Source of the DNA: Dictyostelium discoideum
Taxonomy: Eukaryota
Length of the DNA stretch: 64,000 nt
Assembly: GCA_000004695.1 (NCBI GenBank)
Contig: CM000152.2
Location: 4,160,001 to 4,224,000 of the forward strand
Reading direction: 5' to 3'
Position 1 is the stretch's first letter; every line of letters starts with the position of its first letter. Below, piece by piece: positions 4,402 to 42,900 of this stretch. The position numbers and the translations under genes were made by a program. Below the pieces are notes generated by a model. It was given only the letters and a program-made list of their open reading frames with translations. It did no database searches and was not told the origin of the DNA.

Positions 4402-5436
4402 CATATTTTTTAAAAAAAATACATAAAATATATTAATTTTTTTTCTTTTTTTTTTCTTTTTTATTTTTTTATTTTAATTAGTGGTCTTAGATTTGATTCA
4501 TTTGGACAATTATTAACATTAGGTAATATTAGAGCAAATAGTCAAGTATTAGTAGTTGAAACATGTATGGGATTAGTTACTGGATCAATTGCAGAGAGAA
4601 TGAATGGTCAAGGAACAATTCTATCAGCATATATTGGTAAAGGACCATCACTATCAATTGTTAATAATTTTGGTTTCAATACAGATGTTTTAAATACAAT
4701 TTATCCATTCAATTTAAATATTACAAGTGTTTTAAATAAAGGTGAAGATATCAGTAAATTACCACCAACAGCATCATCTGGTATTTATGATAAACAAGTT
4801 AAAGAAAAAGAAAAAGAAAAAGAAAAAGATGAAAATGTAAAAGATGAAAAAGAAAGTGGTGAAGAAGCAAAAACTATTATAAATCAAAGAAATGATACAT
4901 CAAATGAAAATATTGTAAAATTATTAAAGGATGGTGGTGTTTGGTCATTGGTTATTGTTACAAAGTATTCACCATTAAATATTTTATTATCATGTTGGCC
5001 ATATTTAAATTCATCAGGTAGTTTTGTAATTTATTCACAGTTCCCACAACCATTGATGGAAGTTCATCAATTCCTTCATAAGAATCAAATGGCTGTAAAT
5101 CAACAAATCTCTGAAATTTGGATGAGAGAACATCAAGTACTACCAAAAAGAACTCATCCAATGATGGGTATGGATGGTGCAAGTGGTTTCATTTTATATG
5201 GTACTAAAGTTACAAAACCAATTCAAAAATCAACTACAACTACCACAACTACTACCACCACCACCACTAATAACTCAATCAATCCAACTAAAACCACTGC
5301 TTCATTAGATATTGAAAATAAAGTTATAGATGCAACTACATCATCATCATCATCATCAACAGCAGCAGCAACAACAACTGAAGAAGATAAAGAAGATAGT
5401 GAATCAGCATTAAAGAAAAGAAAAATTGATGAATAA
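3655..5436 (+). CDS. trmt6: tRNA (adenine58-N1)-methyltransferase non-catalytic subunit TRM6/GCD10 homolog; join(3655..3834,3921..4348,4482..5436)
   Basis: The translation aligns with human TRM6 motifs (DNRNLDQNNTAQKLTQEDINEMKQKG...KYLKKKIKKY vs DNRNIVDDGKSQKLTQDDIKALKDKG...KYIKKKKKKY; QLLTLGNIRANSQVLVVETCMGLVTGSIAERMNG vs QMLTLGNIRAGNKMIVMETCAGLVLGAMMERMGG). Splice phases are consistent (0, then 2). The acceptor of intron 1 must be the AG at 3919-3920. Confidence 0.8.
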
Positions 5437-5537
5437 TTTAGAAAAACAAAATTAATAAAAAAAATAATAATAATAATAACAAATATACCTTTTTAAAAAT
5501 TTTTAATTTAATTATATTGCGCAATATATGTTTCTTT

Positions 5538-11088: not shown

Positions 11089-12256
<1,168 letters not shown>

Positions 12257-12985
12257 TTATAGTGGGAATCTTTTTTATTTTAATTTTATTTTTATTTTTA
12301 TTTTTATTTTTATTTAAAATTATAATTTTTATTATTTATTTATATTTATACATAAATACAATTATTTTTTTTTTTTTTTTTTTTTTATGAATTTTAAATT
12401 TTAATATGGATTTTTTTTTTTTTTTTTTTTTTTATTTATTTGAAATTTACCAAAAAAAATTATATTTTTTGCTTATACTTTTGTTTTAATATGTAAACAA
12501 TAATAAAAAAAATAATATAATTTTAAAATTCAACTGGAAAAAAAAAAAAATAAAAAAATAAAAAAATAAAACAGATTTATTATAATTGAAAAAAAAACAA
12601 AAAAAAAAAATAAAAAAATGATAAAAATAGTAGCCCGGCCACACAAGTGGGGTTTAATAAAAAAAAAAAAAATAAGGAGAATAAAAAATTTTATATCGGA
12701 AAATTCAATATAACCACATTCAATATTAATATTAATTCAGAGTATTTACAAAATAAAAAAAAAAAATTTCTTACTTAAATTTTTATTTTAATTTTTTTTT
12801 GAAAAATAAGGTTATGTGATTGGGGGTTTTAAAAATAGAAATTAATAAAAAAACCATCATAAAGAAATTAAAGAGAACTTTATTTTTCCCCAAAAAAAAA
12901 AAAATCTGTCTGTTTGTTGTTTTAGATTAAAAAAAAAAAAAAAAAAAAAATGGATGTGGGACCATCTACATGACAAATACTATTT

Positions 12986-13038
<53 letters not shown>

Positions 13039-13080
13039 AAAAATTGAAATTTCAACACAAAAAATGTTAACCCACAAGTA

Positions 13081-14208
13081 ATGAAAAAACACATAAACAA
13101 AAATGAATATAAAAATGAAATCGAAAATGTTGGTAATGACTTTAACCATTTAGATAATTTTGAAAATTATGATGACGATGATGATGAAGATTTTTACTAT
13201 AACCCAAGTAAAGAATTCACAAATATAAAAAATAATAGTAATAATAATAAAGATAATGAAAATTATGATAAAAAAAAAGAAGAAGAAAATAAAGAAAATG
13301 AAATTGAAGAAGAGGAATATAATAATGATGATGAAGAAGTAGATAAACCACTGAAATTAATATGTGAAGATTCAACATGTTCAATTTGTCTTTCTCCATT
13401 TGAAAATCTTACATTTTTAGATATTTGTTTTCGTAAGTAATAACTTTATTTTAATCCTCCTATATATTTAATATAAAATCTTATACTAACCATATTATAC
13501 TATTCTTTTAAAGACCAATTTTGTTTTGTTTGTATATTACAATGGTCAGAATTAAATCAAAGATGTCCACTTTGTAAAAGTGAATATCATTCTTTAATTT
13601 ATCAAGTTAAATCAAATACAGATTATCAAAGATTTATTATTCAAAATAAAAGACAAACTACTACAACTACTACAACTACTACAAATAGTAATACACAAAG
13701 AAGGCCACAACAACAACAGCATCATAATGACTCAAATCATATTTATAATAATAATAATAATAATCAAAGAAGACAACAAGTATATTTACCAAACTTATCA
13801 ATTACAGAACAACATAATGCAAGAAAAAGTATTTATTCAAGAAATGTTAAGGCTATACCAATGGTACCACCATTTAAATTATATTTAGATCCACAATCGA
13901 TAAATTCAAATTTTAAATCATTTAAAACTAAAGTTCAACCATGGATTAAAAGAGAACTTCAATCAATTTTACAAACTTCTGATACTGAAATTTTAGAAGA
14001 TTTAATTTTAGAACTCTTAAAAAAGTATAATATTATTCATGATTCAAAAATTCATGAAACTTTAGAGAAATTCTTATTTCAAAAAACTAATCTCTTTATT
14101 CATGAATTAATTTGTTTTGCAACTTCACCCTATAATATTAAAACTTATGATTCAAAAGTAATTTATGATAAAAGACAATCATTAATAACTGATATGAATA
14201 ATTTAAAC

Positions 14209-14276
<68 letters not shown>

Positions 14277-14634
14277 AAATAATAATGAGAATAATAATAA
14301 AAATGGAAATGAAGAATCAATGGAACCATTGTCACAGATTTTACAACAAACTAATTCGCCAATTAAACATATTCCATCATTCTTATCGAATATATTAACT
14401 GAAGAGATTGAAAAACAAGAATTAATTGAAAAAGAAAGAATAGAAAATGATATTCAATCAGAGAGAAAACGTATAATTCAAATTGATCAAGAGGAAAATA
14501 TTAGAAAAATTTTGAGATTAAAAGAACCAAATTGGAATAATTTTAATGACTTAAATTCTATATCTACTGATCAGCTAGAATATGAAATTTCAAATTTATC
14601 AGGTTATATTTATAATTTAAAAAATTTTAAAAAC

Positions 14635-14707
<73 letters not shown>

Positions 14708-14808
14708 TAAATAATAGTAATAATAATAATAATAATATAAATAATAGTAATAATAATAATATTAAAAAAAATAATAATAAAAATAATAATAATGATGATA
14801 ATAATTAA
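13081..14808 (+). CDS. RING-finger E3 ubiquitin ligase, TOPORS-like; join(13081..13432,13514..14808)
   Basis: A C3HC4 RING is split by an 81-nt phase-1 intron (CSICLSPFENLTFLDICF|HQFCFVCILQWSELNQRCPLCKSEYHSLIY), closely matching the TOPORS RING (CPICL..F....L..C.H.FCF.C...W......CPLCK). The reading frame is continuous into ORF 13861..14808. Confidence 0.65.
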
Positions 14809-15896
14809 TATTTATTTATTAATAAAAAGTGAAAATAATAGGTTTAAAATTAAATCCCCTTAGATGTAAAAGATCTCTAATTTATTAATTTTTTTTTTTT
14901 TTGTTGTTCTTTATGTCATCGTTCTTTAAATATTTTTTTTTTTTTTAAAAAAAACAAAATGAAGTTTAATATGTTTGTAAATTTTTGAAAAAGAAAAAAA
15001 GAAGAGCAAGAGAGGCGAGTTTGAAAAGAATTGTTGTTGGTTTTGTTCTTTTGAATATTATTTTCCTTACTGTAACGAAATATAGTTTGCTGTAATTTGA
15101 AACAATGATTTAAGTTTTAAAGGAAATTAAGGCCAAGAGACAAGTTCGAGAGATTTGAATTTTTTTTTTTAAAAAAATTATTAAATAATATAGTTACTGA
15201 ATTTTGTAAACAATGATTTATCTTAAATATTAAAATGAAAATGAACCTCCTTTTTTTGATAGGTATTAAAATTTAGTGTACTGGAAATAAAAAAAAATAT
15301 TAGAAAGGTATTTTTTTTTTAAAATGAATTATTATTATTAAACAATTACTATTATTTAAATTACCTGCATTATATACTGTGAATGGAAATATCTGTGCAC
15401 AAAATAAGTGATAGCGACTTTCCAAAAGTTTTTTAAACTAGAACCTTTTTTTGATTGAAAAATAACTTAATTTCATACCATCTTTTTTTTTTGAATAAAT
15501 ACATCCATTGTGAAACTCAATAGATATAATTATTGATTTTGAATTATTTTTTATGGTTTTTATATTTTTTTTTTTCCAAAAAAAAATAATTAAAGATTGT
15601 AATTCCAAAAAATTTCCTTGAAAATATTCACCTTCACTTTTTTTAATCTAGATTAAAAATTATTTTTATTATTGATAAAAAAATAAAAGAAAATAAAATG
15701 AAATTTCACAATTTAAATTAAAAAAAAAAAATAATGATTTTTTTTTATTGGGATTGAATTTCTAAAAAAAAAAAAAATTAAAGAGAAAATAAAAAAATAG
15801 GTTGCAATATTTGTTTTAATTTTCTTTTATTTTTTTTTTTTTTTTTATATATTAAATTATTTAATTTTATTTTTTTATTTAAAGTTAATTTTTTTC

Positions 15897-15931
<35 letters not shown>

Positions 15932-16224
15932 AGCCAACGCGCCAATGCTTTCCCTTGATTCGTCCCAAATTTATTAATTAGTTTGCAATTTTTTTTTTTT
16001 TTTTCACAAGCCAAGCGACCGACCACCCTCCAACGTTAAAAAAAACAATTTTTTTTAACATTTTTCACAATTTTTCATTTTTTTTGAATTTTTTTTTTTT
16101 GTTTTCTCTTCCAATTGGAATTTTATATTTTTTTTTTTCATTTTTTCAAATATTTTTCACAACCAACACCCACACAGATATTTTATTTCAAATAAACGTA
16201 TAAAAAAAAAAAAAAATACAATGG

Positions 16225-17722
16225 ATGAGTATTTTCTATCAATATCACTTAAGTGTTTTAAAAGGAACAAATCCAGAAGCCAAAAATAAAAAAGAAACTG
16301 ATAAAATTGAAAGTATTACAAAAAATTTCATTCTTGGAACTGTTGATGGAAAACAAGTATTACAAAAAAATGGTGAGTATGGTTTTTGAAAAAACAAAAA
16401 AAAAAAAAAAAAAAAAATTTTTAGTTTCCATTTTTCTAATTAATTAATTTTATTTTTATTTTTATTTTTGTTTATATTTATTATTTTTTATTTAATTTTT
16501 ATTTTTTTTTAAATAAATAGTTGCAGGTACATTTAGAATTGTTCCAAAAGAGTCTGAGAAAAATGCAATTTTAAGAGGTAACCATATTGTAGGTGGTGAA
16601 CATTTAAGTAAAACTAGACTCGTCGATAGTTTAAAGGGTCACTTTTGGGCATCAAAAATTCAAGATGTTGAAGCTTTTTTAGGTAAATGTTCAGAATGTT
16701 CATCAATTTATCCACTTAAAGATAAAAAAGAAGATGATGAAGATAAAGAAGAAAAGAAAGAGAAAAAAGATAAAAAAGAAAAGAAGGATGATAAAGAAGA
16801 TAAAGAGGATAAAGAAGAGAAAAAAGATAAAGACGAGAAAAAAAAGAAATCATCAAAGAAATCAAAAGAACCAAGTGATAATGAAACTGAAGAGGAAGAA
16901 GAAGAAGAAGAAGAGGAACCAGAAAAAAAACCAACTAAAAGCAGATCAAGATCATCTTTAGCCGCTGCAACAAAAACTGTAGCTAAAACACCAACTAGAT
17001 CAAAATCATCACTTAAAGAAAATGAAACTAAAGAAAAAGAAACCAAAGAAACCAAAGAAAAAGAAGCTAAAGAAAAAGAAGCTAAAGAAAAAGAAGCTAA
17101 AGAAAAAGAAACCAAAGAAAATGAAACAAAAGAAAAACCAAAAGGTAAAGGAAAAGAAACAAAAGAAAAAGAAAAAGAAAAAGAAAAAGAAAAAGAAAAA
17201 GAAAAAGAAAAAGAAAAAGAAAAAGAAAAGGAAAAGGAAAAGGAAAAGGAAAAAGAAAAAGAAAAAGAAAAAGAAAAGGAAAAGGAAAAAGAAAAGGAAA
17301 AAGAAAAAGAAAAACTAAAGGAAAAAGAAAAAGAAAAAGAAAAAGAAGCATCAGAGGGATCAGATTCAGATTCAGAAACTAAAGAATCTGGTAAAAAGAG
17401 AAAATCACCATCAACAACAGCATCAAAAAAGAAAGCAAAGGTCACAGCCTCTCGTTCAAATGTTACTAATAACACCAAAGAAGAGAGTGGTTCTTCAAAT
17501 GATACTGATGCTTCCTCAGCATCCGATAGTACTGCTCCAGAAGCATCCACTACCACCACCACTACCGAACCAAAGAAATCAATTCCAATGCCATCAAAAT
17601 CTGCTGTCAAATCATCAGCAAAGGTTCAACCAGAACAAAAATTCGGTGATGTTTCAATCACTGAATTAAAATCTGCCTTAGCTGTCATCACAAAAGTTAT
17701 CGAAGCCATGGAAAAGAAATAA
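16225..17722 (+). CDS. Highly charged Lys/Glu-rich (KE-dipeptide repeat) probable nuclear protein; join(16225..16372,16521..17722)
   Basis: ATG at 16225, G|GTGAGT donor at 16372 (phase 1), acceptor AG at 16519-16520. Exon 2 encodes a folded N-terminal domain (GTFRIVPKESEKNAILRGNHIVGGEHL...), then ~200 aa of KEKEKE/KEKETKE repeats encoded by (GAAAAA)n, and a Ser/Thr-rich tail. The minus-strand ORF 16708..17610 (SFSFSF...) is the antisense artefact of the same repeat. Confidence 0.6.
17161..17336 (+). repeat. (GAAAAA)n / (GAAAAG)n hexamer repeat encoding (KE)n
   Basis: Direct reading, ~29 hexamers with occasional G substitutions. Confidence 0.9.
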
Positions 17723-18220
17723 ATAATTATAATTAATAATTAACGACAATATTAAAAACTACAAAAAAAAAAAAAAAAACCAGAAAAAAAAAAAAGAAAT
17801 AAAATAAAAAAAAAAAAATGTAAAGTTAAATCCTTTATTCACCAGCAATCCATATCGAAAAAAATCTTATTTATTTATATATTTTATTTTTATTTTAATT
17901 TTTTTTTTTTTTTTTTTTTTTGTAGTTTTGGAAATTAAAAAAAGATTTTTAAAAATCGTGATTGAAATTAATCTTGTTTTTTGGGTTTGTGGAAAAATAA
18001 AATAAAAAAAAAGAATAGTTGCGAAAATAAAAAAAGGAATTTGAGGAATTGTTTAATCTAAATAGAAAGATTTAAAGTTTTTACCAAAAATAACAACCCC
18101 TTCTTACCAATTTTGATTTTAATTTATTTCATTTATAATTTTTTTTTTTTTTTAGTTATGTTTAATTTTTTTTCTTATAATCTTTAATTTTTTTATTTTT
18201 TTTATAAATAAAAAAACTAC

Positions 18221-18252
<32 letters not shown>

Positions 18253-18285
18253 ATTTTTTATTATCCAAAGCGAGTTTTAATAAAA

Positions 18286-18320
<35 letters not shown>

Positions 18321-18378
18321 AAATTAAATTAAATTAAAAAAAAAAAAAAAAGAATCAATTAATTAAATAGTAATCATA

Positions 18379-19137
18379 ATGTTATTTAATCAATATGTAT
18401 TTAAATATAAACAAGGATTTTATGGTCATAGGGAGTATGATTCAGTTTATTCAATAGCGTTGATTGATAGTTTATCATTACAAGAATTTATTTTTATAGT
18501 TAATAATTTAAATTATAAAATGCCTTATTATCTCTCAATTTTAAATAGTATTGCTTTATTTTTAATTTTCCCAATTAATATATTTTTATTTATATTCCAT
18601 CATAATTCTTGGATACAAACTTTTTTTTTATTATTTTTAATAGTTTTTTCTATTTTTTTATTTTCTATTAATATTTTCGAATTATATTTAGTAAGATTTT
18701 AATTCTTTTTTCTTTCTTTAAATATATAATATTTACCTTTTTTTTTTTTTTTTTTTTTATTACAAATTTTTTTTTTTTATTAATAGCCTAAAAAGAGAAT
18801 AATTACATTTATAGAAGAATTAAATAATGAATATTCAAATAGATTAATTTCATTTCATATTAATCAAGAAGAGGACATTGTTTTATTATATCCATTACCA
18901 GATCATTTTTATAAAAATGTTCCTTTCCCTTTTTTCCAAATACATCAACCAATTCAACAAGATCAAAATCAACAATTACAGGAACCATTACCTGGTAAAC
19001 AATACCAAGAGCAACAAAAACATGAAACATATACTTCAATTGATTTTCAACCAATTATTGAAACAAATCAATATTCCGAGCCATTGTTATCAGAAATTGA
19101 AGAATATACTCCAATAGATTTAAAAGAACAAATTTAA
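18379..19137 (+). CDS. Small polytopic membrane protein with a Gln-rich acidic C-terminal tail; join(18379..18690,18787..19137)
   Basis: ORF 18379..18702 is truncated at a TTA|GTAAGA donor (phase 0). An acceptor AG at 18785-18786 opens an in-frame exon ([20 protein letters not shown]...[12 protein letters not shown]). Exon 1 encodes 3-4 hydrophobic helices. There is no recognisable homolog. Confidence 0.4.
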
Positions 19138-19326
19138 AAAGTGAAATTTATAAAATAGGATTTGAACCTATTCCATAACAAACTAGATCTTAAAAATTTT
19201 GAAAAAAAAAAAGATAGTTATCTTTTTTAACTATTAAACATACCCAAATAAAATAGATTATCTTATATATTAAAATTATTTTTCTATTTTTTGTTTTTAT
19301 TTTTAATTTAAATAATTATGTTTTAT

Positions 19327-20254
19327 TTATAATAATTTAATGAAATCAAAAGTTTGAACATCATTAGTATTGGTGATAGATTTGAAAGTGATAACAATGT
19401 TACCAGATTCGAATGACCATGACCAATAGCCACTTAAATTAGCATCGTGTTTAATAACGATAGTATGATTTGAAGTTACTTCTTGAACTGCTTCTAAAAT
19501 CATTTCATCTGCACAACGTTTTGAAAGATTTGCTGCTACTTTTTCAACGATACCAGCGAAGATATGACCGAAACTATTCTTTAAATCGTCAGCAACTTTT
19601 GGATAAACAGATTCTAATGATGATTCATCGATTGACCAATCTGATGATGATTTTAATGCTTTTTTAACTGATGATAAATTATCTTTCATTTTTTGTTCGT
19701 TTGTTTTAATATTTAAACGAGTCATTAATGAATAAACACCTTGAGTTTGAATAATTGTTTCTAATTTAAATGTGTTAACATCATTTGTGTTACATATCTT
19801 TGGACGGAATAAAATTTGACAATCACCATTTTCAAATTGATATTTCCAATATGATGATAACTTTTCATCAGCACAAACAAAAACAAATTTTTTATTTGGA
19901 ACTGCAGCTAAGAATGCTTCTTTGATTAAAGGATCTGCACCTACTTTAACCATGTTTTTAGCAAGATTACCAACAACATCTTTATAAAATATACTACCAC
20001 AACTATTTGTAACCCAAGAATCATTACATTTTGCAATAATATCTTCGAAATCAAATTCGATGGCAAATGGTTCCCCTAATGATTTTTCAATTAAGGCTAG
20101 ATTTGTTTTTAAAGATTCTTCATTATCTTTTAATGATTTTCTATAACAAATTGAATTTTTATATTAGTATTTATTTATATTAGGTATTGGTTTTTAATTA
20201 AACTTATTTTTTTAATTTAAATAATAAATACCTTGAAGTTAAAGCGAGAGGCAT
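19327..20254 (-). CDS. Tandem-family copy 1: 278-aa protein with an internal two-module repeat; join(complement(20232..20254),complement(19327..20140))
   Basis: A 23-nt first exon (MPLALTS + AG) is spliced (GT...AG, phase 2) to an 814-nt exon containing ORF 19327..19953. It is 98-100% identical to copies 2-4. Confidence 0.7.
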
Positions 20255-20653
20255 TTTAAAATTTTATTAGTATTTATATTATTTTTTTAAAAAAAAAAAA
20301 GAATTTATTATTTATAGTATGTTTTGATTGAATGATTTGAAAAGAATAAAACATTTTGTATTTATACTAAAATAAATTGGAAATAAAATTAATAATTTGA
20401 TTTTAAAAAAAAAAATAGAAAAAAATTAGATTCGGTGGTAAGAAATAATTTGAAAAAAAGATATTTTTATTAATTGGAATGAAAAAAAAAAAAATTTAAA
20501 AAAAAAAAAAAATTTTTAAACAAATATCTTAAGATTTTTTTTTTTTTTTCAAAAAGGAATTATAAATTATTTATTTAAATGTACAACAACTTAATTTAAA
20601 TAGTTTAAAATAGTTTTATATTATTAAATGAATGGTATTTTTAGATAAACAGT

Positions 20654-20940
20654 TTAAAGGTCAACATGAGCATATACTGCTAATATTGGATGGATAATAA
20701 CTAATGCATCAAGGGTTAAAAGAGCAGCATTATTATTAGATTGAGAAGTTCCAACAAAATGAGTTCCTGAAATTTGATTCTTTTGAGATGCACTTTGGAT
20801 ATTAGCAATTGAATTTAATGATTCTATTAGGTTTTTTAATTATTATTATTTTTTTTTTAAAACAATGTTAATTCTTAATTTTTTTTTTTTTTTTTTTTAT
20901 TTTTTTTTTTTTTTTTTTTTTATAACTTACTGAATAACAT
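20654..20940 (-). CDS. 59-aa small Ser/Asn-rich protein gene, copy s1 (hssA/sigN-like small-protein family candidate); join(complement(20931..20940),complement(20654..20823))
   Basis: ATGTTATTCA|GTAAGT first exon (10 nt, phase 1) plus a 170-nt exon give MLFKSLNSIANIQNSSQKNQISGTQLIGTSQSNNNAALLTLDALVIIHPILAVYAHVDL*. The coding exons are conserved among 4 copies while the introns differ. Confidence 0.6.
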
Positions 20941-21556
20941 TTTAGATTTTTAACAATTTAATACAAGTGTTTGATTATTTTTAATGATTAAAAAAAATAT
21001 TTTTTATTCATTTTATAGTTTTTTTTTTTTAATAATATTATTGTATTTTAAAATTATTATTAAAAGATTTCATATAATTTAATAATGAAAAAATAACCAA
21101 GTGATCAATTTTGATCAGCTTTTGAATCAATTATCTATTCTAATCAGTTAGAATTTATTTATTAAAAATCACAAAATCTGTTATTTAAATTTTGTGGTAT
21201 ATTAATTAATAAAAAAAAAAAAAAGAAAAAAGAAAATTGTAAAAATAAAATTAAACACATTTTAATAAAACCTTTAATGTATTTAAATTCTATTTTTACA
21301 AAAAAATTTAACATCGTTTGTATTAGTGATTGAGATGGCAATTTTTTAAATTGACCATAATGGACATTTAAGAAAAATGTGAATTAAAACAATATTATTT
21401 TTGTTATTGCCAATTAATATTTTTTTTTTTTTTTTTTTTATCTATTAACACAAAAAAATAACAGATTTTGGGGTTTTTTTTTAAAATTTTAAAGTTTTAT
21501 TAATAAAATGATTGGAGATTAAAGTAACTTTTAAAAAATAATAAGTTTATTTATTT

Positions 21557-21588
<32 letters not shown>

Positions 21589-21681
21589 AATAATAATATC
21601 AATAATAAAAAAAACTATAAAATAAAAATTTTATTTTTTTAATTTAATCATTAAAATTAATTAAAATATTAAAAATTTAAA

Positions 21682-21955
21682 ATGTTATTCAGTAAGTTTA
21701 ATAAAAATTATAAAATTTGTAATATTTTTAATATTGAAAACAATTTAATATTAATTATATTAAAAAAATTATAAAAATTATTTAGAATCATTAAACTCAA
21801 TTGCCAATATCCAGAATTCATCTCAAAAGAATCAAATTTCAGGAACTCAATTAATTGGAACTTCTCAATCAAATAATAATGCTGCTCTTTTAACCCTTGA
21901 TGCATTAGTTATTATTCATCCAATATTAGCAGTATATGCTCATGTTGACCTTTAA
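21682..21955 (+). CDS. 59-aa small protein gene, copy s2, transcribed divergently from s1; join(21682..21691,21786..21955)
   Basis: Same two-exon structure as s1. The exon-2 nucleotide sequence is the reverse complement of 20654..20823 (near-identical). Confidence 0.6.
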
Positions 21956-22116
21956 ACTGTTTTATTAAAAATATTAAAACTATTATAAAATAATTTGTTG
22001 TATTTTTAAATAAATAACTAATTTAATAAATTTTTAAAATTTCTTTTTCTATAAATTTAATCATTAAATTAAAAATAAAAAAATAGAAAAAAATATTTAT
22101 TTATTTAATGTTTTAT

Positions 22117-23047
22117 TTATAACAATTTAATGAAATCAAAAGTTTGAACGTCATTGGTATTGGTAATAGATTTGAAAGTGATAACAATGTTACCAGATTC
22201 GAATGACCATGACCAATAGCCACTTAAGTTAGCATCGTGTTTAATAACGATTGTATGATTTGAAGTTACTTCTTGAACTGCTTCTAAAATCATTTCGTCT
22301 GCACAACGTTTTGAAAGATTGGCTGCTACTTTTTCAACGATACCAGCAAAGATATGACCGAAACTATTCTTTAAATCGTCTGCGACTTTTGGATAAACAG
22401 ATTCTAATGATGATTCATCGATTGACCAATCTGATGATGATTTTAATGCTTTTTTAACTGATGATAAATTATCTTTCATTTTTTGTTCGTTTGTTTTAAT
22501 ATTTAAACGAGTCATTAATGAATAAACACCTTGAGTTTGAATAATTGTTTCTAATTTAAATGTGTTAACATCATTCGTGTTACATATCTTTGGACGGAAC
22601 AAAATTTGACAATCACCATTTTCAAATTGATATTTCCAATATGATGATAACTTTTCATCAGCACAAACAAAAACAAATTTTTTATTTGGAACTGCAGCTA
22701 AGAATGCTTCTTTGATTAATGGATCTGCACCTACTTTAACCATGTTTTTAGCAAGATTACCAACAACATCTTTATAAAATATACTACCACAACTATTTGT
22801 AACCCAAGAATCATTACATTTTGCAATAATATCTTCGAAATCAAATTCAATTGTAAATGTCTCACCTAATGATTTTTCAATTAAGGCTAAATTTGTTTTT
22901 AAAGATTCTTCATTATCTTTTAATGATTTTCTATAATAAATTATATATTTAAATTAGTATTTATTTATATTAAGGCATTGGTTTTTTAATACCTTATTTA
23001 GTTTTAAAACTAAATAATAAATACCTTGAAGTTAAAGCGAGAGGCAT
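22117..23047 (-). CDS. Tandem-family copy 2 (278 aa); join(complement(23025..23047),complement(22117..22930))
   Basis: ORF 22117..22743 is identical in protein to copy 1. The upstream 23-nt exon (MPLALTS) is conserved. The unit period is ~2.79 kb. Confidence 0.7.
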
Positions 23048-23475
23048 TTTTAAAATTTGATTGTTATTTATTTTATTTAAAAAAAAAAGAATTTGTTATT
23101 TAAAATATATTTTGATTGAATGATTTGAAAAGAATAAAACATTTTGTATTTATACTAAAATAAATTGGAAAAAAAATTAATAATTTGTAGAAAAATAGAA
23201 AAAAAAAAGATTTGATAGTAAGAAATAATTTAAAACAAGATATTTTTAAAAATTGGAATGAAAAAAAAAAATCTAACAAAGATCTTTCATCAAAAAAAAA
23301 AAAAATAAAAAATAAAAAATAAAAAAAAAATAAAAATTTTTAAACAAATATCTGAAGAGGTTTTCTTTTTCTTTTTTTTTTCCCCAAAGGGAATAAATTT
23401 TTATTTAAATGTACAACAACTTAATTTTAATAGTTTTAAATTATTAAATGAAAATGGTATTTTTAGATAAACAGT

Positions 23476-23732
23476 TTAAAGGTCAACATGAGCATATACT
23501 GCTAATATTGGATGAATAATAACTAATGCATCAAGGGTTAAAAGAGCAGCATTATTATTTGATTGAGAAGTTCCAATTAATTGAGTTCCTAAAATTTGAT
23601 TCTTTTGAGATACACTTTGGACATTTGCAATTGAGTTTAATGATTCTATTAAGTTTTTTATAATTTTTTAAAGGTTAGTTTTAAATTGTTTTCAATATTA
23701 ATAATTTTATTATTTAACTTACTGAATAACAT
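23476..23732 (-). CDS. 59-aa small protein gene, copy s3; join(complement(23723..23732),complement(23476..23645))
   Basis: Same structure. Its intron resembles the intron of s2 (the plus-strand copy of unit 1), indicating that the segment is inverted between units. Confidence 0.55.
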
Positions 23733-24499
23733 TTTAGATTTTTAATATTTTTATACAATTTATTAATTTTAATAATTAAATTTAATAAAAAAATTTTATT
23801 TATAGTTTTTTTAATTGATATTATTATTTTTTTGTTTTTTTTTATTTTTTTTTTTTTTTTTTTAACAAATAAACAACCTTATTACTTTTTAAAAGTCGCT
23901 CTAATCTCCAATCATTTTATTAATAAAACTTTAAAATTTTAAAAAAATAAAAAAAAACCCAAAATCTGTTATTTTTTTTTGTGTTAATAGATAAATAAAA
24001 AAAAAAAATAAAAAAAATAAAAAAATAATAATAATTGGCAATAACAAAAATAATATTGTTTTTATTCACATTTTTCTAAAATGTCCATTATGGTCAATTT
24101 AAACAATTGCCATCTCAAACAATAATAAAAATGATGTTCAATTTTTTTCTATAAATACATTAAAGGTGTTATAAAAATGTGTTTAATTTTGTTGTTACCA
24201 TTATTTTATCTTTTTTTTTTTTTTTTTTTTTTTTTTGAATTAATTACCACAAAATTTATATAACGTGTTATGTGGTTTTTAATAAAATTTTTTTACTGAT
24301 TAATAGATAATTGATTCAGATAGCTGATCAAAATTGATCACTTGGTAAATTTTTCATTAAAAAAAATTATATGAAATTTTTTTAAAATAAATTTAAAATA
24401 CAATAATATTATTAAAAAAAAAACTATAAATGAATAAAAAAAAATTTTTTAATCATTAAAAATAATCAAACACTTGTATTAAATTTTTAAAAATCTAAA

Positions 24500-24768
24500 A
24501 TGTTATTCAGTAAGTTATAAAAAAAAAAAAAAAAAAAAAAAAAACTACAAAAAATTAACATTGTTTTAAAAAAAAAAATAATATAAAAAACCTAATAGAA
24601 TCATTAAATTCAATTGCTAATATCCAAAGTGCATCTCAAAAGAATCAAATTTCAGGAACTCAATTAGTTGGAACTTCTCAATCAAATAATAATGCTGCTC
24701 TTTTAACCCTTGATGCATTAGTTATTATTCATCCAATATTAGCAGTATATGCTCATGTTGACCTTTAA
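24500..24768 (+). CDS. 59-aa small protein gene, copy s4; join(24500..24509,24599..24768)
   Basis: Encodes MLFKSLNSIANIQSASQKNQISGTQLVGTSQSNNNAALLTLDALVIIHPILAVYAHVDL*. Its poly-A-rich intron resembles the intron of s1. Confidence 0.55.
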
Positions 24769-24949
24769 ACTGTTTAATTAATAATTTCAAAACTATTTTA
24801 AAAAATAATTTGTAGTATATTTAAATAAATAATTAATTTAAAAATTTCATTTTCTTTTATTTTAATTTAATAATTAAAATAAAATCTAAAACTTAATTTT
24901 TAAATAAAAAAAAGAAAAGATTATTTATTTTATTAATTTGATATTTTAT

Positions 24950-25867
24950 TTATAACAATTTTATGAAATCAAAAGTTTGAACGTCATTAGTATTGGTGAT
25001 AGATTTGAAGGTGATAACAATGTTACCAGATTCGAATGACCATGACCAATGACCATTTAAGTTAGCATCGTGTTTAATAACGATTGTATGTTTTGAAGTT
25101 ACTTCTTGAACTGCTTCTAAAATCATTTCGTCTGCACAACGTTTTGAAAGATTGGCTGCTACTTTTTCAACGATACCAGCAAAGATATGACCGAAACTAT
25201 TCTTTAAATCGTCTGCGACTTTTGGATAAACAGACTCTAATGATGATTCATCGATTGACCAATCTGATGATGATTTTAATGCTTTTTTAACTGATGATAA
25301 ATTATCTTTCATTTTTTGTTCGTTTGTTTTAATATTTAAACGAGTCATTAATGAATAAACACCTTGAGTTGGAATAATTGTTTCTAATTTAAATGTGTTA
25401 ACATCATTTGTGTTACAAATCTTTGGACGGAATAAAATTTGACAATCACCATTTTCAAATTGATATTTCCAATATGATGATAACTTTTCATCAGCACAAA
25501 CAAAAACAAATTTTTTATTTGGAACTGCAGCTAAGAATGCTTCTTTGATTAAAGGATCTGCACCTACTTTAACCATGTTTTTAGCAAGATTACCAACAAC
25601 ATCTTTATAAAATATACTACCACAACTATTTGTAACCCAAGAATCATTACATTTTGCAATAATATCTTCGAAATCAAATTCAATTGCAAATGGCTCACCT
25701 AATGATTTTTCAATTAAGGCTAAATTTGTTTTTAAAGATTCTTCATTATCTTTTAATGATTTTCTATAATAAATTATAATATAAGTATAAATTAATATAT
25801 ATTTTTATTAATCTTTTTAATAACATTTAATTATAATAAAATACCTTGAAGTTAAAGAGAGTGGCAT
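24950..25867 (-). CDS. Tandem-family copy 3 (278 aa; variant residues P, K, N, H); join(complement(25845..25867),complement(24950..25763))
   Basis: ORF 24950..25576. The first exon encodes MPLSLTS. It carries copy-specific substitutions (SKHTIVIKHDANLNGHW, IIPTQG). Confidence 0.7.
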
Positions 25868-26362
25868 TTTTAATTATTTTTTTAATTATTTTAAATAAAA
25901 AGAGTCACAAAAAAGAGTTTATTATTTATAATATGTTTTGATTGAATGGTTTGAAAAGAAAAAAATATTTTGTATTTATACAAAAAAAAAGAAAGTAAAA
26001 AAAAAACTTTAAAATAAAATTAGAAAAAAAAAAGATTGGATAATCAGAAATAAAAAAAAAAATAAAAATAAAAAAAAAACTAAGATATGTCAAAATAAAA
26101 AAATTAGAAAAAAAAAAGATTTTTTAAAATTTCTGATATATTCTTCCAAAATAAAAAAATATCTTTACTGGTTTTTTTTCATTTTATTTCTAAAAACTTA
26201 ATCTTTTTTTTTTCTAATTAAAACTATTATTATATTTATTATTATTTTTTTTTTAATATAAATAAACAAAATGTTTTATTGTTTCAAATCATTAAATCAA
26301 AACATAAAAAATAGTAAACACCTTTTTTTTAAAAAAAATAAACAAAAATAATTAATTTCAAA

Positions 26363-27263
26363 ATGCCTCTCGCTTTAACATCAAGGTATATATTTTTTTT
26401 TTTTTTTTTTTTTTTTTAAATTGTTAATATTAATAAATTTTAATTATAGAAAATCATTAAAAGATAATGAAGAATCTTTAAAAACAAATTTAGCCTTAAT
26501 TGAAAAATCGTTAGGTGAGCCATTTGCAATTGAATTTGATTTCGAAGATATTATTGCAAAATGTAATGATTCTTGGGTTACAAATAGTTGTGGTAGTATA
26601 TTTTATAAAGATGTTGTTGGTAATCTTGCTAAAAACATGGTTAAAGTAGGTGCAGATCCATTAATCAAAGAAGCATTCTTAGCTGCAGTTCCAAATAAAA
26701 AATTTGTTTTTGTTTGTGCTGATGAAAAGTTATCATCATATTGGAAATATCAATTTGAAAATGGTGATTGTCAAATTTTGTTCCGTCCAAAGATATGTAA
26801 CACGAATGATGTTAACACATTTAAATTAGAAACAATTATTCCAACTCAAGGTGTTTATTCATTAATGACTCGTTTAAATATTAAAACAAACGAACAAAAA
26901 ATGAAAGATAATTTATCATCAGTTAAAAAAGCATTAAAATCATCATCAGATTGGTCAATCGATGAATCATCATTAGAATCTGTTTATCCAAAAGTTGCTG
27001 ACGATTTAAAGAATAGTTTCGGTCATATCTTCGCTGGTATCGTTGAAAAAGTAGCAGCAAATCTTTCAAAACGTTGTGCAGATGAAATGATTTTAGAAGC
27101 AGTTCAAGAAGTAACTTCAAATCATACTATCGTTATTAAACACGATGCTAATTTAAGTGGCTATTGGTCATGGTCATTCGAATCTGGTAACATTGTTATC
27201 ACCTTTAAATCAATCACCAATACAAATGATGTTCAAACCTTTGATTTCATTAAATTGTTATAA
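26363..27263 (+). CDS. Tandem-family copy 4 (278 aa), inverted relative to copies 1-3 and head-to-head with copy 3; join(26363..26385,26450..27263)
   Basis: ATG at 26363, AG|GTATAT donor at 26385 and acceptor AG at 26448-26449 join in frame to ORF 26421..27263 (which starts at an alternative TTG only as an ORF-finder artefact). Confidence 0.75.
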
Positions 27264-27405
27264 ATAATAATTCAAAATAAAAATAAATAAACTCATTTAA
27301 AAACTAACTATTAATTTATTTAAATTATTTATATTATTTATTATTTTCTTTTTATTTTTTTTTATTTTTTTTTTTTTTATTTTTTTTTTTTTTTTTGTTA
27401 ATTTA

Positions 27406-27472
27406 TTAATTCTTTTTAAATTTATTATTAAAGTTACTGTATTTAACTGATTTTGATTTTAATTTATCAGTG

Positions 27473-27510
<38 letters not shown>

Positions 27511-29627
27511 TGAATGATCGATAGATAAAGATGATGATTTTGTTGAAATAAATAAAAGTTTAAAGATACCTAAATAAATTGGTACTAAACCAAATATGAA
27601 AAAAGGGAAGAATAAGAAACCCCAATTATTTGAAGCTAAAATTATACCAATGAATAAATTTTTCCAACCTATTGACCAAAGTGCCCACCATTCGAATACT
27701 AAAAACGTTGGATGAGAAACCAAACAAATGATCATCCAAATTAATTTGACAAGTTTTGATTTAACTTTATTTTCCAATATAAAAGTTGTAAAATGTAATG
27801 TTGGTAATGATAAAACAATAAATAAACATGTAAATTGGTTATTTAACATCATACCCATTAATCCCAATAATGCATAATCTATAAAAAAAAAAAAAAATTA
27901 ATAATAAATATATAAATTATTTATATATAAATAAAATAAAACTTACATAATAATAAAATTGTTTGGGTACCATACCAATCATTTTTATTAAAAGTTGGAA
28001 AAGATATTGATAAAATTTTAGTTATATATTTTGAAATTGGTGATAAAATGAAAAAGTAAAATGAAATACACGCTAAAAAAAAAGTGAAAGAAAAGAAAAT
28101 GATTTGATTCTCTATTGAATTTGTAATTGATAATGTTGAGAATAGATTATTTAAAAGCTGTGATGATTTATATAAATTTGCAGGTTGTAAATCATTAGTT
28201 GGAATTAAATTAAAACTTGATAAAAACCAAGGTAACAATAAAATAGTTGAACAAAATAAAAGTATTGATAGAAACCATGGTAAAGATAATAGAATTCTAA
28301 TTGTAATATTCTCAATTGAAATAGAAATCGATATCAATTGTAAGAAAATCCCAACACTAAATACAATCACTGGTAACAATGCTTGACCCAAATCAATGAA
28401 AAACACAGCACCCGCCATCATATACCATCTATAACTTTGATGTAATTGTTCATCTGCATTATGTAAATGTCTAATAACAGTCTCCATTATTTTCCCCAAA
28501 TTAAAAAATGTTGTATTACTTAATGGTTCTTCATTAAATCTTTATTTTTTAAATAAAATAATAAAAGTTAATAATATATTATTAATTTATTTATTATTAT
28601 TATTATTTATTTAATTAATTATTACCTTTTAATATTTTTATGAATTTTATGTAATGGTGTATTTAAGAAATCAATATCCCAAACATTATGAGAATGGTCA
28701 GTACTGACACCAACTGAATTGATACCATATTGAGTGAATATTGCATGATTTGAACGTGGTAATGATAAAGCGGAATTCCACATGAAAATTAATAAACCAT
28801 AGAGTGAACCTTCAACAGCTTCTTGATCCATATGAGTGTTTATACCAGCTGGTATATCATTTAAGAATGATGTAGTGGTGATTACATTTAATATATCTAA
28901 ATTTGATAAACCACCTTTTAAACCCTCTGGGTACACTAAAATTCTCTCCATATTTTTATTACCAACCCTATCAATTGCAATTGCACCATAAATTTGACCT
29001 GCTCTTAATAATGTTTTTGATGAATAATTATTTTCTAAAGAATTTCCTTTCTGTTGTTGTTGTTGTTGTTGTTGTTGATGATCACCACCACCAGCAGTCC
29101 AACCAACTGGTTTAACACTATAGTAATCATTTAACCAAACTGATATACCTGAAATATCCATTGATGTACCACCATTAATTTCACCACCTTCACTTGTGAA
29201 AACATATATTATATCTCTTGCTTGCCATGATGTATTCTTTAAATACTCTGAAAATCCAATTAAAAATCCAACTGATCCTGCACTATGCCATTGATCAAAT
29301 GATGTTGTCAATACAAAATTCTCTGTACCTAATGATCTAATTGCTTTTGATATACCAATTACATTTACTCCTATCCTATCTATTAATTAAAATAATAATA
29401 ATAAATTAATATATTGAATATATTATATATATATATATATATATATACAACCACAATAACAAATCTTACTAAATGATGAATTAAAAAAATATAATTGAGT
29501 TTCTAAACCCAATTGATCTAATTGATATTTTATCCAATTTGCGCTATTTAATGCCTCATTTGAACCTAATGACCTATTCGGGAACTATATACACATATAA
29601 GAAATAATATATTAATTATAATTTGTT

Positions 29628-29689
<62 letters not shown>

Positions 29690-34900: not shown

Positions 34901-39620
<4,720 letters not shown>

Positions 39621-39949: not shown

Positions 39950-42900
39950 TTAAGCTTCATTCATTGTTTTTAATTTTTGATTTACGTTCTTCATAAAAGT
40001 TTTTTGGTTTTTCTTTCTGAAATGATGATAAATAATTGAGACAACAATGACGGCAGCAAAACCTACAGCACCAATGATAATACCAGCCAATTGAGCGGAT
40101 GATAAACCACCACCAGATTTTGAATTACAAATATTATTATTACCACCATCAGATTTAGAATTATCCAATAAAACAGAGAAATCTGGATCAATAATTGAGG
40201 AAACAGAATAATGTGGTATATCAATACCAATGAATGATTGTGATTTTGTTGGTGTTTTAATTGCACTCATTTCATTATCTAAAATTGAATTTGAAATTGA
40301 AACTATTCTATTATCAATAATACCTCTTTTTAATAATCTACCATAAAGTGAATGTTGATCAATTTGAATTTTAATATAATTTGAATCATCACCTGTACTG
40401 GTATCACCAAATTCATTAGCTGAACAAATTGAATCATCATTTGAATTAGTTTCAAGTTGTGCTGACATCACTAATTGTAATTTATTTAATGCTGAATTAA
40501 ATTTATATTTTGAAAGTTCAATTGTGTATTTAACAGATGAAGGATTCATTTTAATTGTTTGTTGAGCAAAAGTAATATTAGATTCTTTATCAAACCATTG
40601 TAATGTTACATTAACAATAGTTTGATTATTAATATCATCACCAATTGTTGTAATATATTGTTGAGTTTTTTCATTAATTTCTGTTAAAGTCCATTTTTCA
40701 AATCTATGAATTTTATAAACTGAATCATCAAATGTAATTTCTCTAATTGCAACTAAATTAATAATTGATTTAAATGTTATTAATTCATTTGAACCATTAT
40801 TATTATTACCATTATTTGGTATATCAATTGAAATAGTTGGTTCAGTAGAGTTTGGTTTTGGTTGTGGTATAATAATAACAGTGGAACTACAATCAATACC
40901 AATATATGGAGTAAAACAAATACATCCATTTGGTGTACATATTCCTTTATTTGCTCCACCACAATTGTTTTTACATAGTTGTGGTGAATTTGTTGGTAAA
41001 TTTGTATTTTCAGTAGAGGATGATGATGATAAATATGGTGGCGTTGGATCATAAAGTGCTATCCATGGTTTAATAGTATAAATATTTGAAGTTATATTTG
41101 AAGGTGATAATTTTGAAACTTTAATTGTAAAACTATTATTTGTTGGTAAAATATTTGAAATTAAAATTGCACTTGAATAAACTTTTGAAATAATTGGATT
41201 ACCATTTCTTTGTGCTTGTAAATTTTGATTATGGTATGAAAGAGTAACTGAATTTACACCTTTGAAACCTCTACCAAAAATCCATAAATTACCACCATTA
41301 CTATTAATATCTTTATGAGAAGTAATGATTGGTTTATCAATTGAATAAGTACTGATATTAATTGATGATTGGAAACCTAATAAATCTAAATCAGAACTTC
41401 TAAAACCAGAGAAATAACCATTATTATTAACTATACCATATATTGAAAGCAATGCACCATGTGGATATCCAAATGCAATTGGTAATTCAATTTCACAATA
41501 ATATTTTGAATCTTTAAGTAATTGAGATTTACACTGTAATAATTTTAAATCTCCACCAAGTATATAAACTATTGGGTTTTGATCATATTTAATACCACTA
41601 ACTGAATCACGAGTTTCAAAATTAAATGATACTGTTCTATTTAAAGAACCAACATCAATAATACCACTTGAAACTGTAAATGCTATTAACTCTGGTGTAG
41701 TTGTATCATCCCCCTCTGGTATACCACATCCTTGGAAATTAATTGATGTAACTGTCATTTCATCTAAACTTTTTATAAATGGATTGAATGAATCGAATTG
41801 ATCAGGGATTTCATCTAAACTAAATCTTGAATAACGTCCCATTGTATCATTTAAAAATACATTTGTAATAACATAACTTTGTGATTTACATGGATTTGAT
41901 GAATTAATTCTAATAGAATATTGACCAATGAATTTATCACCTAAAATTAAATCATTTGAAGATCTAATTTCAAATTCATATAATGATGAATCTATTGAAC
42001 CTCTTACAATAATTAAACCATATTCAAATCCATTATATAAATCTTCTATAGTAAAATCCCAACCAAAACTATTTACTTCAAATTCTTGAGTAATCTTTTT
42101 AAAAATTGGTCCATAATAATCCATATCTTTTTATTTTAAAAAATAAAAAATAAAAAAAAAATATATATTAGGTTGTTGTTCAATCAATTATTAATTATTA
42201 TTATTATTATTATTATTATGAATGAAAAAATACATACTTTTTGAAATTACATTTAATTGAGTTGGTAATAAATTATGATCAATTTGATAATCACCAAATG
42301 CTATACCATAAACTAAATTACCATGATAAATATTTGCATCAACATAAAAATCTGATTGGAATAAATTTAATGTTGGATTCCAAACTATTGGGAAATATTT
42401 AATATCATTTTGTAATAATGATTTCTTTTGTGTAAAGAAATTAATTGGATAATTATTTGGAACTTCATCTTGATCAAAACTAAAGTAAACTCTATTTGCA
42501 ACTGAAATATTTGAAACATCAATTTCATTAATTACAAATGAAATATTTTTTAAATATTCAATCTTATTTTCTAAATTTTATTTTATTTTAAAAATTAAAA
42601 AATTAATAAATTAATAAATTGTAAAAAATAATATTAATAATTAATATTAATGAATATATAACTTACTTGGTTTAAATGATGAAATATCAAAAGGTGGTAA
42701 TGTATCTGAATAGAAATAAGGTGTTGAAATTTCAAATTTTCTATCAGTTTGATCAATAAAATTTAAATTTCCTAATTTGGTGAAAGTATTATCAACTAAA
42801 ATTTCATATGTACCATTATAAATAGTACCAAAAACTAAACATTCAACACCACCTAATAAAGTATTGATTTCCAACACATAATCTTGAGATATAACATATT

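Follow-up and report, generated by a model that had tools for sequence, protein, structure and literature searches.

One old inversion probably accounts for the opposite orientations of a 1.2-kb segment in two tandem gene units of Dictyostelium discoideum

Two neighboring tandem units on chromosome 3 of Dictyostelium discoideum AX4 carry the same inner segment of about 1.2 kb in opposite orientations, as seen in Table 1. The best explanation is a fixed evolutionary inversion in unit 1 that arose in a single homologous recombination event involving the inverted 3' ends of divergent 59-aa paralogues, and we give this reading a probability of roughly 0.8. The locus lies in a 64-kb stretch of DNA, referred to here as the window, and all positions are counted from its first letter. 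Each of the two 2.8-kb units holds one 278-aa gene and a head-to-head pair of 59-aa genes, and plus-strand self-BLAST matched 19306-23318 to 22095-26117 (82% over 4186 nt). The three 278-aa genes G1, G2, and G3 are on the same (minus) strand, as had been said of the genes flanking the pairs in a preliminary description of this DNA. The region is repetitive and ~80% A+T. No tandem arrays with a period up to 500 were found in the 18-30 kb part of the window, and no tRNA genes were found in the 64 kb. A Pfam search placed neither the 59-aa nor the 278-aa proteins in a family. Literature searches with the four small-gene identifiers found no papers, and no record matched the 59-aa protein in an exact-product look-up.

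Table 1. Features of the locus, in window positions
Feature	Positions	Strand	Description
Tandem unit 1	19306-22094		G1 and small-gene pair 1; inner segment in derived (inverted) orientation
G1 (DDB_G0281187)	19327-20254	minus	278 aa in two exons, without a Pfam domain; protein present in the collection as an exact match
Left exchange interval, unit 1 inversion	20646-20755		3' ~100 nt of exon 2 and 8 nt past the stop codon; from four-way alignment
A1 (DDB_G0281189)	20654-20940	minus	Alpha type (poly-A intron) with A-type 3' flank, a recombinant combination
Spacer 1	20941-21681		741 nt between start codons; upstream of both genes of the divergent pair; matches spacer 2 as its reverse complement
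B1 (DDB_G0281191)	21682-21955	plus	Beta type (intron with TTAATATTGAAAACAATTTA); protein match P0001 at 100% identity
Right exchange interval, unit 1 inversion	21854-21963		Alignment columns 206-315 in window coordinates
G2 (DDB_G0281193)	22117-23047	minus	278-aa gene; gene model
Unit 2 left arm core	23468-23577		109 nt that match the right arm without a difference; homologous to the exchange interval of unit 1
A2 (DDB_G0281195)	23476-23732	minus	Beta type, ancestral position
Spacer 2	23733-24499		767 nt between start codons; ancestral orientation, beta left and alpha right; collinear with the spacers of L001, L002, L008 unit 2, and L010 a-c
B2 (DDB_G0281197)	24500-24768	plus	Alpha type with B-type 3' flank; linkage as in the single D. 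citrinum gene
Unit 2 right arm core	24667-24776		109-nt tract identical to the unit 2 left arm
G3	24950-25867	minus	278-aa gene; gene model
G3/G4 head-to-head palindrome	24869-27329		G3 (minus) 24950-25867 and G4 (plus) 26363-27263, center near 26118; from self-BLAST (86% over 2520 nt), gene models, and a center scan

All four small genes have two exons: a 10-nt exon 1 (ATGTTATTCA) followed by GTAAGT, and a 170-nt exon 2, which together encode 59 aa. The pairs A1/B1 and A2/B2 are divergent. Each pair had been described as an inverted repeat around a spacer of ~740 bp, and this was seen directly: the arms of unit 1 (20616-20848 and 21761-21993) are 233 nt long and 86% complementary, those of unit 2 (23436-23669 and 24575-24808) are 234 nt long and 90% complementary, and the spacers have the lengths given in Table 1. 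A scan of metagenomes for a 23-nt arm motif gave 0 matches. The two intron types are swapped between the units, which also agrees with the preliminary description. The poly-A intron (containing AATTAACATTGTTTTAAAAAAAAAA) is common to A1 and B2, and the intron with TTAATATTGAAAACAATTTA is common to B1 (21728-21747, plus) and A2 (23682-23701, minus). The four open reading frames are all intact, with 59 codons, second exons of 170 nt, and intact splice sites.

The spacers showed the same relation as the introns. Spacer 1 aligned to the reverse complement of spacer 2 with a score of 989 (665 matches, 51 mismatches), in contrast to a score of 298 for the direct alignment, which is on par with the score of either spacer aligned to its own reverse complement (317 and 337). 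Mononucleotide shuffles scored 77±13 (maximum 120), and reversed-only and complemented-only controls scored 119 and 97, respectively. A simply palindromic spacer, for which orientation would be meaningless, was considered and rejected; the self-complementarity is real (317 versus 77±13) but far below the score between the units. The earlier claim that spacer 2 is the reverse complement of spacer 1 is thus upheld, and the two motifs quoted in its favor were located in both spacers, one at 21481-21520 with an exact reverse complement at 23903-23942, and the other at 21352-21384, matched in reverse complement by 24064-24096 with 1 mismatch. BLAST on the minus strand matched 20562-22014 to 24837-23400 (83.2% over 1524 nt, 1597 bits). 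The segment that is reverse-complemented between units 1 and 2 is the inner ~1.2 kb, which lies between collinear outer flanks. It is made up of the spacer, the two first exons, the two introns, and ~69 nt at the start of either exon 2. Substitution divergence between the inner segments of the two units is 7.1%, compared to 5.9-11.6% for flanking noncoding DNA.

The exchange intervals could be read directly from a four-way alignment of the small genes. The inverted relation (A1=B2, B1=A2) holds 5' of exon-2 position ~69, and the tandem relation (A1~A2, B1~B2) holds from ~8 nt past the stop codon. The switch falls within alignment columns 206-315, a region of ~108 nt without an informative site. 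The spacer takes along the first exon, the intron, and 69 nt at the 5' end of exon 2, which leaves the 3' ~100 nt of that exon and a few bases past the stop codon as the recombining arm. The exchange points fall within the arms, where identity is high, and the flipped inner segment is what the preliminary description expected of recombination between inverted arms. The inversion is balanced: the flanks are collinear, genes and splice sites are intact, and there is no gain or loss at the junctions. In B1, A2, and B2, the residues encoded by the exchanged 3' parts are identical. Two nested inversions between arms of different units were also considered and rejected; both spacers would flip, leaving the same relative orientation.

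The arms themselves have been homogenized in the same part of exon 2. In unit 2 the longest exact match between arms runs to 109 nt, and in unit 1 to 46 nt. Differences between the unit 2 arms number 6/69 in the 5' part of exon 2 and 0/101 in the 3' part (Fisher p=0.004), and those between the unit 1 arms 8/69 and 2/101 (p=0.016). The private variants 110T, 111G, 145G, and 159A of L010, all in the 3' part, are present in 8/8 alpha and beta copies, and L002 has its own variants 38C, 92C, 113C, and 128A in both arms. Alpha and beta copies remain distinct in the 5' part except at 38C, which lies where the arms of L002 are also identical. Strain-private variants common to alpha and beta copies in the 3' tract mean that the arms recombine, and their concerted evolution is observed directly. 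Switch points within this homogenized tract read as the signature, at the level of sequence, of homologous recombination between inverted repeats.

Orientation was compared in 10 complete units from about four strains of the D. discoideum complex and a reassembly of the AX4 genotype. L003, L004, and L005 are paralogous G-gene loci that lack the small genes and were left out. In the reassembly (GCA_054883475.1), the AX4-like chromosome CM142509.1 is collinear with window positions 12095-29652 at 99.83%, and within 20500-24900 it differs from AX4 by a single homopolymer. This independent assembly is chromosome-scale (6,429,748 bp versus 6,357,299 bp in the reference) and reproduced both units, so the two states do lie side by side on one chromosome, as first described. 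The strain assembly GCA_054859355.1 (L008) differs from AX4 by 2.8% substitutions in the flanks, yet its unit 1, which is orthologous to AX4 unit 1, is inverted and its unit 2 is standard. The contig of this strain ends inside a further small-gene arm, which could reflect repeat complexity or structural heterogeneity. The other eight complete units (AX4 unit 2, L008 unit 2, L001, L002, and four L010 units) all have the standard, unit 2 orientation. Copy number of the unit varies between strains from 1 to at least 4. A literature search on the new Dictyostelium assemblies found nothing relevant.

Unit 1 of AX4 and unit 1 of L008 form one clade as mutual closest relatives (8 informative sites, 78% NJ bootstrap); this support is moderate, and the AT-rich, indel-rich spacers align imperfectly. 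Orientation is concordant with the unit phylogeny in these 10 complete units from about four strains, so one event suffices. Discordance between orientation and segment phylogeny, the sign of recurrent toggling, was seen in none of the 10, a small sample. The preliminary description had called the segment invertible; instead, orientation behaves as a stable inherited character, with the same state in both assemblies of the AX4 genotype and in orthologous units of different strains. The D. citrinum outgroup gives the polarity directly. Its single gene joins an alpha-like upstream region and intron to a B-type 3' flank, which is the linkage of unit 2 and not of unit 1, making unit 2 the ancestral and unit 1 the derived orientation; the alignment scores to this rearranged outgroup locus are modest (z = 4-5.5 for the 3' flank). 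That alpha was ancestrally beside the 278-aa gene, as the D. citrinum arrangement might suggest, was rejected because the citrinum 3' flank is B-type.

These data suggest the following history. A single small gene, as in D. citrinum, would have been duplicated head-to-head into a ~1.4-kb quasi-palindrome whose center has since decayed, and gene conversion between the arms would keep the 3' ~100 nt of exon 2 nearly identical. The unit of a 278-aa gene and a pair was then amplified, plausibly by unequal crossing-over of the 278-aa genes, which are direct repeats. Before the lineages of AX4 and GCA_054859355.1 separated, a crossover in unit 1 or an equivalent recombination, resolved in the ~109-nt homogenized tract, would have turned around the ~1.2 kb between the arms. 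Each gene would flip with its own promoter, exon 1, intron, and two thirds of its coding sequence. Since these move together, only the positions and the 3' flanks of two near-identical genes are swapped, and the inversion was probably near neutral.

A reciprocal crossover is the pathway we infer, and the same arms could serve other kinds of recombination. One of these is inverted long-tract gene conversion or gap repair, in which a break in the spacer is mended from the neighboring unit in inverted register, with arm A using the other unit's arm B and without a reciprocal crossover inside a unit. Such copying would give the same end product with the same exchange intervals inside the arms, and arm similarity between units does equal that within units. 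We find it unlikely, given that the inner segments of the two units are as diverged as their flanks and fall into separate clades, each common to AX4 and L008. Any copying would thus have to be about as old as the duplication, and it would need two coordinated invasions where a single crossover is otherwise enough. Less probable still is a segment that flips actively, with arm recombination so frequent that clonal populations are mosaic at each unit and an assembly records the majority or a random state. The arms demonstrably recombine, unit 2 offers a perfect inverted match of 109 nt, both states exist, and the L008 assembly, of long-read scale, breaks exactly inside a small-gene arm. However, the two independent AX4-genotype assemblies agree at both units, and orientation tracks the unit phylogeny in all 10 complete units. 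The arms are also short, as high identity extends over ~110 nt in unit 2 and no perfect match in unit 1 exceeds 46 nt, whereas recurrence of human inversions is governed mainly by the length of the flanking repeats, most recurrent cases having repeats of at least 10 kb (bioRxiv 10.1101/2021.12.20.472354).

The other two explanations can be nearly dismissed. Mis-orientation of the 1.2-kb segment in the AX4 reference, through inverted arms left unresolved within a tandem repeat, might be suspected in a repetitive region of about 80% A+T where the unit 2 arms have 109 identical bases. The collinear independent assembly makes this very unlikely. Moreover, a diverged strain has the same two states, the unit 1 arms have only 46 identical bases, far below read size, and inner segments that differ by 7% are distinct sequences. 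A programmed inversion by a site-specific recombinase that switches expression, like that of a bacterial inverton or of the 2-micron FLP/FRT system, is similarly hard to credit. Its appeal is one of geometry only, as inverted repeats enclose a segment that contains promoters. Precomputed Pfam matches for the called genes within ±10 kb were to the Gaa1, phosphodiesterase, and Kelch families or to none, with no recombinase or transposase domain, and none was detected in 10 scanned ORFs, taken from among the largest ones of the 64-kb window. Ordinary gene conversion acts on the exchange interval, a conserved stretch of coding sequence, and since both promoters and both genes invert together, no linkage between promoter and gene changes and nothing is switched on or off.

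A single old inversion in unit 1 remains the preferred reading, and it carries a caution for annotation. The four DDB_G02811xx small genes are not simple tandem duplicates; the counterpart of A1 is B2, and that of B1 is A2. The 8-kb locus is a compact, fully sequence-resolved case of three repeat-driven processes, namely unequal crossing-over, arm conversion over ~100 nt, and inversion of ~1.2 kb. It indicates that ~110-230 bp of homology is enough for a fixed inversion in Dictyostelium, and, with its junctions known exactly, it can serve PCR or long-read assays of inverted-repeat recombination. There is a slim chance that the pair still toggles measurably in vegetative D. discoideum despite its ~110-bp arms, so that clonal AX4 cultures are mosaic for orientation at one or both units. 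If so, recombination between short inverted repeats could be scored by PCR at a natural reporter locus in a haploid model organism, and toggling could add a stochastic layer to orphan-gene expression if the swapped 3' flanks differ in function. The locus as it stands reveals no new mechanism or regulatory switch.

Several known systems share parts of this arrangement. In plastid genomes, the yeast 2-micron plasmid, and herpesvirus genomes, an inverted repeat also surrounds a unique segment with two possible orientations. Both isomers are present at comparable abundance per cell in those replicons, through long repeats or a dedicated recombinase. In contrast, each unit here has one consensus orientation, on which independent assemblies agree and which is conserved from strain to strain. 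Bacterial invertons and phase-variation switches (Hin/hix, FimB/E-fimS) have only their geometry in common with this eukaryotic nuclear locus, which has no recombinase nearby, whose arms are gene bodies, and where the promoter stays with its gene. The ampliconic palindromes P1-P8 of the human Y chromosome are more similar, with arms that evolve in concert and are far more alike than the center, and a crossover between arms can likewise invert the spacer. They span tens of kb to Mb, compared to ~1.4 kb here, where homogenization is confined to ~100 nt of coding sequence and the center, in which the palindrome continues in decayed form, acts as the upstream region of both genes. Human inversions by NAHR between inverted paralogous repeats, including toggling ones (EMD-FLNA; bioRxiv 10.1101/2021.12.20.472354), resemble this case in that repeats bound the segment, the breakpoints lie inside them in a tract of high identity, the event is balanced, and direct and inverted states occur among homologous copies. 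Their repeats are at least 200 bp and usually several kb long, with segments of kb to Mb, versus arms of ~110-230 bp and a segment of ~1.2 kb here. In contrast to the toggling human inversions, no recurrence was detected in the 10 complete units, and the host is a haploid social amoeba. The two states of a human NAHR inversion are alleles, whereas those described here sit in paralogous tandem units of one chromosome.

The locus contains two tandem 2.8-kb units, each made of a 278-aa gene (G) and a head-to-head pair of 59-aa genes, in a window with a G+C content of ~20%. The 59-aa products matched DDB_G0281191 (100%), DDB_G0281189, and DDB_G0281195 of D. discoideum AX4 (6,357,299-bp chromosome), and the fourth copy is DDB_G0281197. 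All four small genes have an exon 1 of 10 nt, an A/T-rich intron of 77-107 nt, and an exon 2 of 170 nt. A Pfam search found no family for the 59-aa or the 278-aa protein. Except for one metagenome-derived match, the 278-aa family was found in dictyostelids only. In a set of 1.8 billion cluster representatives, the 59-aa family came down to the four AX4 copies and two further proteins of 57-58 aa. The C-terminal half of the 59-aa proteins (GTQLIGTSQSNNNAALLTLDALVIIHPILAVYAHV) matched eight repeats, with the motif ...SLAVGSHPITAVYEGD, of an 1868-aa Ig-like-repeat protein (summed E = 8e-12, 44% identity), which could be a motif-level resemblance or a domain fragment. Elsewhere in the window, large paralogous minus-strand ORFs at 34901-37111 and 39950-42124, both with DUF7035, DUF7034, DUF7949, and ComC supersandwich domains, are a further local gene duplication.

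Genes of the two units and tracts to which the exchange maps
Feature	Positions	Strand	Source
G1, 278-aa gene, DDB_G0281187	19327-20254	-	gene model
A1, small gene, unit 1	20654-20940	-	gene model
B1, small gene, unit 1	21682-21955	+	gene model
G2, 278-aa gene, DDB_G0281193	22117-23047	-	gene model
A2, small gene, unit 2	23476-23732	-	gene model
B2, small gene, unit 2	24500-24768	+	gene model
G3, 278-aa gene, DDB_G0281199	24950-25867	-	gene model
G4, 278-aa gene, DDB_G0281201	26363-27263	+	gene model
Exchange intervals, unit 1	20646-20755 and 21854-21963		four-gene alignment
Homologous tracts, unit 2	23468-23577 and 24667-24776		four-gene alignment

The preliminary description had placed the inner segments of the two units in opposite orientations, and alignment of the pair segments bore this out. 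Self-BLAST returned the direct tandem repeat (19306-23318 vs 22095-26117) and a strong reverse-complement match between the pairs (20562-22014 vs 23400-24837; 83% over 1524 nt, 1597 bits). After reverse-complementing, global alignment of the pair segments gave an ungapped identity of 94%, with per-100-nt values of 0.72-0.97 over the whole segment, whereas spacer blocks in direct orientation reached only 0.53-0.69, not above a segment against its own reverse complement. The spacers (741 nt in unit 1, 767 nt in unit 2) scored 989 as reverse complements compared to 298 directly, 119 when only reversed, 97 when only complemented, and 77±13 for mononucleotide shuffles. The spacer motifs quoted earlier and the reported swap of introns between units were exact on checking. 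Weak self-complementarity was left in both spacers (20941-21681, score 317; 23733-24499, score 337) compared to the shuffles (77±13). Since the direct and self-reverse-complement scores (~300) exceed those of shuffles, the 1.4-kb small-gene pair is one old palindrome with a decayed center rather than a pair of arms enclosing an unrelated spacer.

An assembly artefact is very unlikely. A second D. discoideum chromosome-scale record with all four G proteins (GCA_054883475.1, CM142509.1, 6,429,748 bp) was collinear with window positions 12095-29652 at 99.83% (4 mismatches, 26 gap positions), and over 20500-24900 it differed by one homopolymer only. Both orientations are thus reproduced by an independent assembly.

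The four small genes and their flanks were aligned in coding orientation to map the exchange. The upstream region, exon 1, intron, and first ~69 nt of exon 2 paired in inverted fashion, A1 with B2 (alpha type, with the poly-A intron) and B1 with A2 (beta type). Tandem pairing, A1 with A2 and B1 with B2, began ~8 nt past the stop codon. The ~108 nt between the two pairings held no informative site; B1, A2, and B2 share one sequence there, and two changes are private to A1. Arms matched exactly over at most 109 nt in unit 2, compared to 46 nt in unit 1. Within exon 2, arm differences clustered 5', with 6/69 there compared to 0/101 in the 3' part for unit 2 (Fisher p=0.004) and 8/69 compared to 2/101 for unit 1 (Fisher p=0.016). 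Among 20 copies of exon 2, taken from AX4 and another four genomes of the D. discoideum complex, strain-private variants in the 3' ~100 nt were common to alpha and beta copies. One D. cf. discoideum strain (L010) carried 110T, 111G, 145G, and 159A in 8/8 copies, and another (L002) had 38C, 92C, 113C, and 128A in both arms. Of these, 38C belongs to the 5' part, in which the arms of L002 are likewise the same; the rest of the 5' part kept alpha- or beta-specific states. The 3' pattern is one of concerted evolution via arm-to-arm gene conversion. The conversion tract coincides with the interval to which the inversion exchange maps.

Orthologous loci in other strains were defined by their Gaa1 and phosphodiesterase flanks, and orientation was called standard when the 278-aa gene on the same strand had the beta gene next to its 5' end. 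Single units in the standard orientation, that of AX4 unit 2, were found in D. discoideum GCA_054859385.1 (L001) and D. cf. discoideum GCA_054859205.1 (L002). L010 (GCA_054859235.1) has four units, three plus one in the mirrored arm of a larger palindrome, all standard. D. discoideum GCA_054859355.1 (L008), with 2.8% substitutions relative to AX4 in single-copy flank, has at least three; its unit 1 is alpha-left like AX4 unit 1 and its unit 2 is beta-left like AX4 unit 2. These copy numbers, with two units in AX4 and in the second chromosome-scale record, fit unequal crossing-over between directly repeated 278-aa genes.

Several further rearrangements were seen. The G3(-)/G4(+) head-to-head palindrome (24869-27329) is 86% self-complementary over 2.5 kb around a symmetry center near 26118, essentially without unique spacer; in L010 it has grown to three G(-) and two G(+) genes, and its mirrored arm holds a small-gene pair. 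The L008 contig JBTAPG010000074.1 (reverse-complement 1-340) stops within exon 2 of another small gene on the plus strand, in visibly noisy sequence (indels); the assembly may have broken there because of the repeats, or the locus may be structurally heterogeneous. In L008 unit 2, the alpha copy (reverse-complement ~5420-5506) has lost exon 1 together with the 5' portion of the intron, replaced by a duplicated 29-nt piece, AATAAATGTGATTCTATTAGGTTTTTTTT, that includes the intron/exon-2 junction in reverse complement. This suggests a second small rearrangement tied to the inverted repeat.

The preliminary description's idea of an invertible, flip-flopping segment was not supported. Eight informative sites grouped unit 1 of AX4 with that of L008, and six split these and L002 from both unit 2 copies and L001. 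The inverted units formed one clade (78% bootstrap; neighbor-joining tree of 10 inner segments), and one inversion older than the AX4/L008 split is enough to explain 10/10 complete units. The inner segments of units 1 and 2 diverge by 7.1%, beside 5.9-11.6% for flanking noncoding DNA, and thus give no sign of a recent event. No recombinase or transposase was found among called genes within ±10 kb or in 10 ORFs picked from the largest in the window. Low-level flipping of the inner segment may occur.

D. citrinum provided the polarity. Its two orthologous loci have no inverted repeat and a single small gene flanked by a G(-) and a G(+), whose 5' ends face it, one copy with an in-frame stop (GNQ*IGT). 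Since only one small gene is present, the head-to-head duplication behind the inverted repeat appears to be confined to the D. discoideum complex. Upstream and in its intron, the D. citrinum gene resembles the alpha type, and its 3' flank is of the kind seen in the right-hand genes (B-type, z = 4-5.5 compared to ~0 for the left-hand A-type), so the alpha and B-flank linkage of unit 2 is taken as ancestral and unit 1 (alpha and A-flank) as the recombinant.

The best explanation for the inversion is a single homologous-recombination event between the inverted arms. The unit would first have duplicated in tandem, plausibly through unequal crossing-over between directly repeated G genes, and the exchange would have followed within the homogenized ~109-nt tract. 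An origin by recombination between the arms is supported by the mapping of the exchange to this tract and by their concerted evolution. A reciprocal crossover inside one unit would be the simplest pathway; inverted-register gap repair templated by the neighboring unit would yield the same product and seems improbable to us. In each small gene the promoter travels with exon 1, the intron, and two thirds of the coding sequence, and the 3' parts that were exchanged hardly differ, so for these two near-identical genes the inversion only swaps positions and 3' flanks. From this we infer that it is probably close to neutral.

A recombinase-driven inverton differs from this locus, where no recombinase lies nearby and promoter-gene linkage is unchanged. 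NAHR-mediated inversions of the balanced kind, between paralogous repeats in inverted orientation, show similar behavior, as do palindromes with arm-to-arm conversion. In a survey of human inversions, recurrence is set mainly by repeat length, usually >=10 kb (bioRxiv 10.1101/2021.12.20.472354), and the short arms here fit the single event seen. The locus is a well-resolved new example of an already known kind of inversion.
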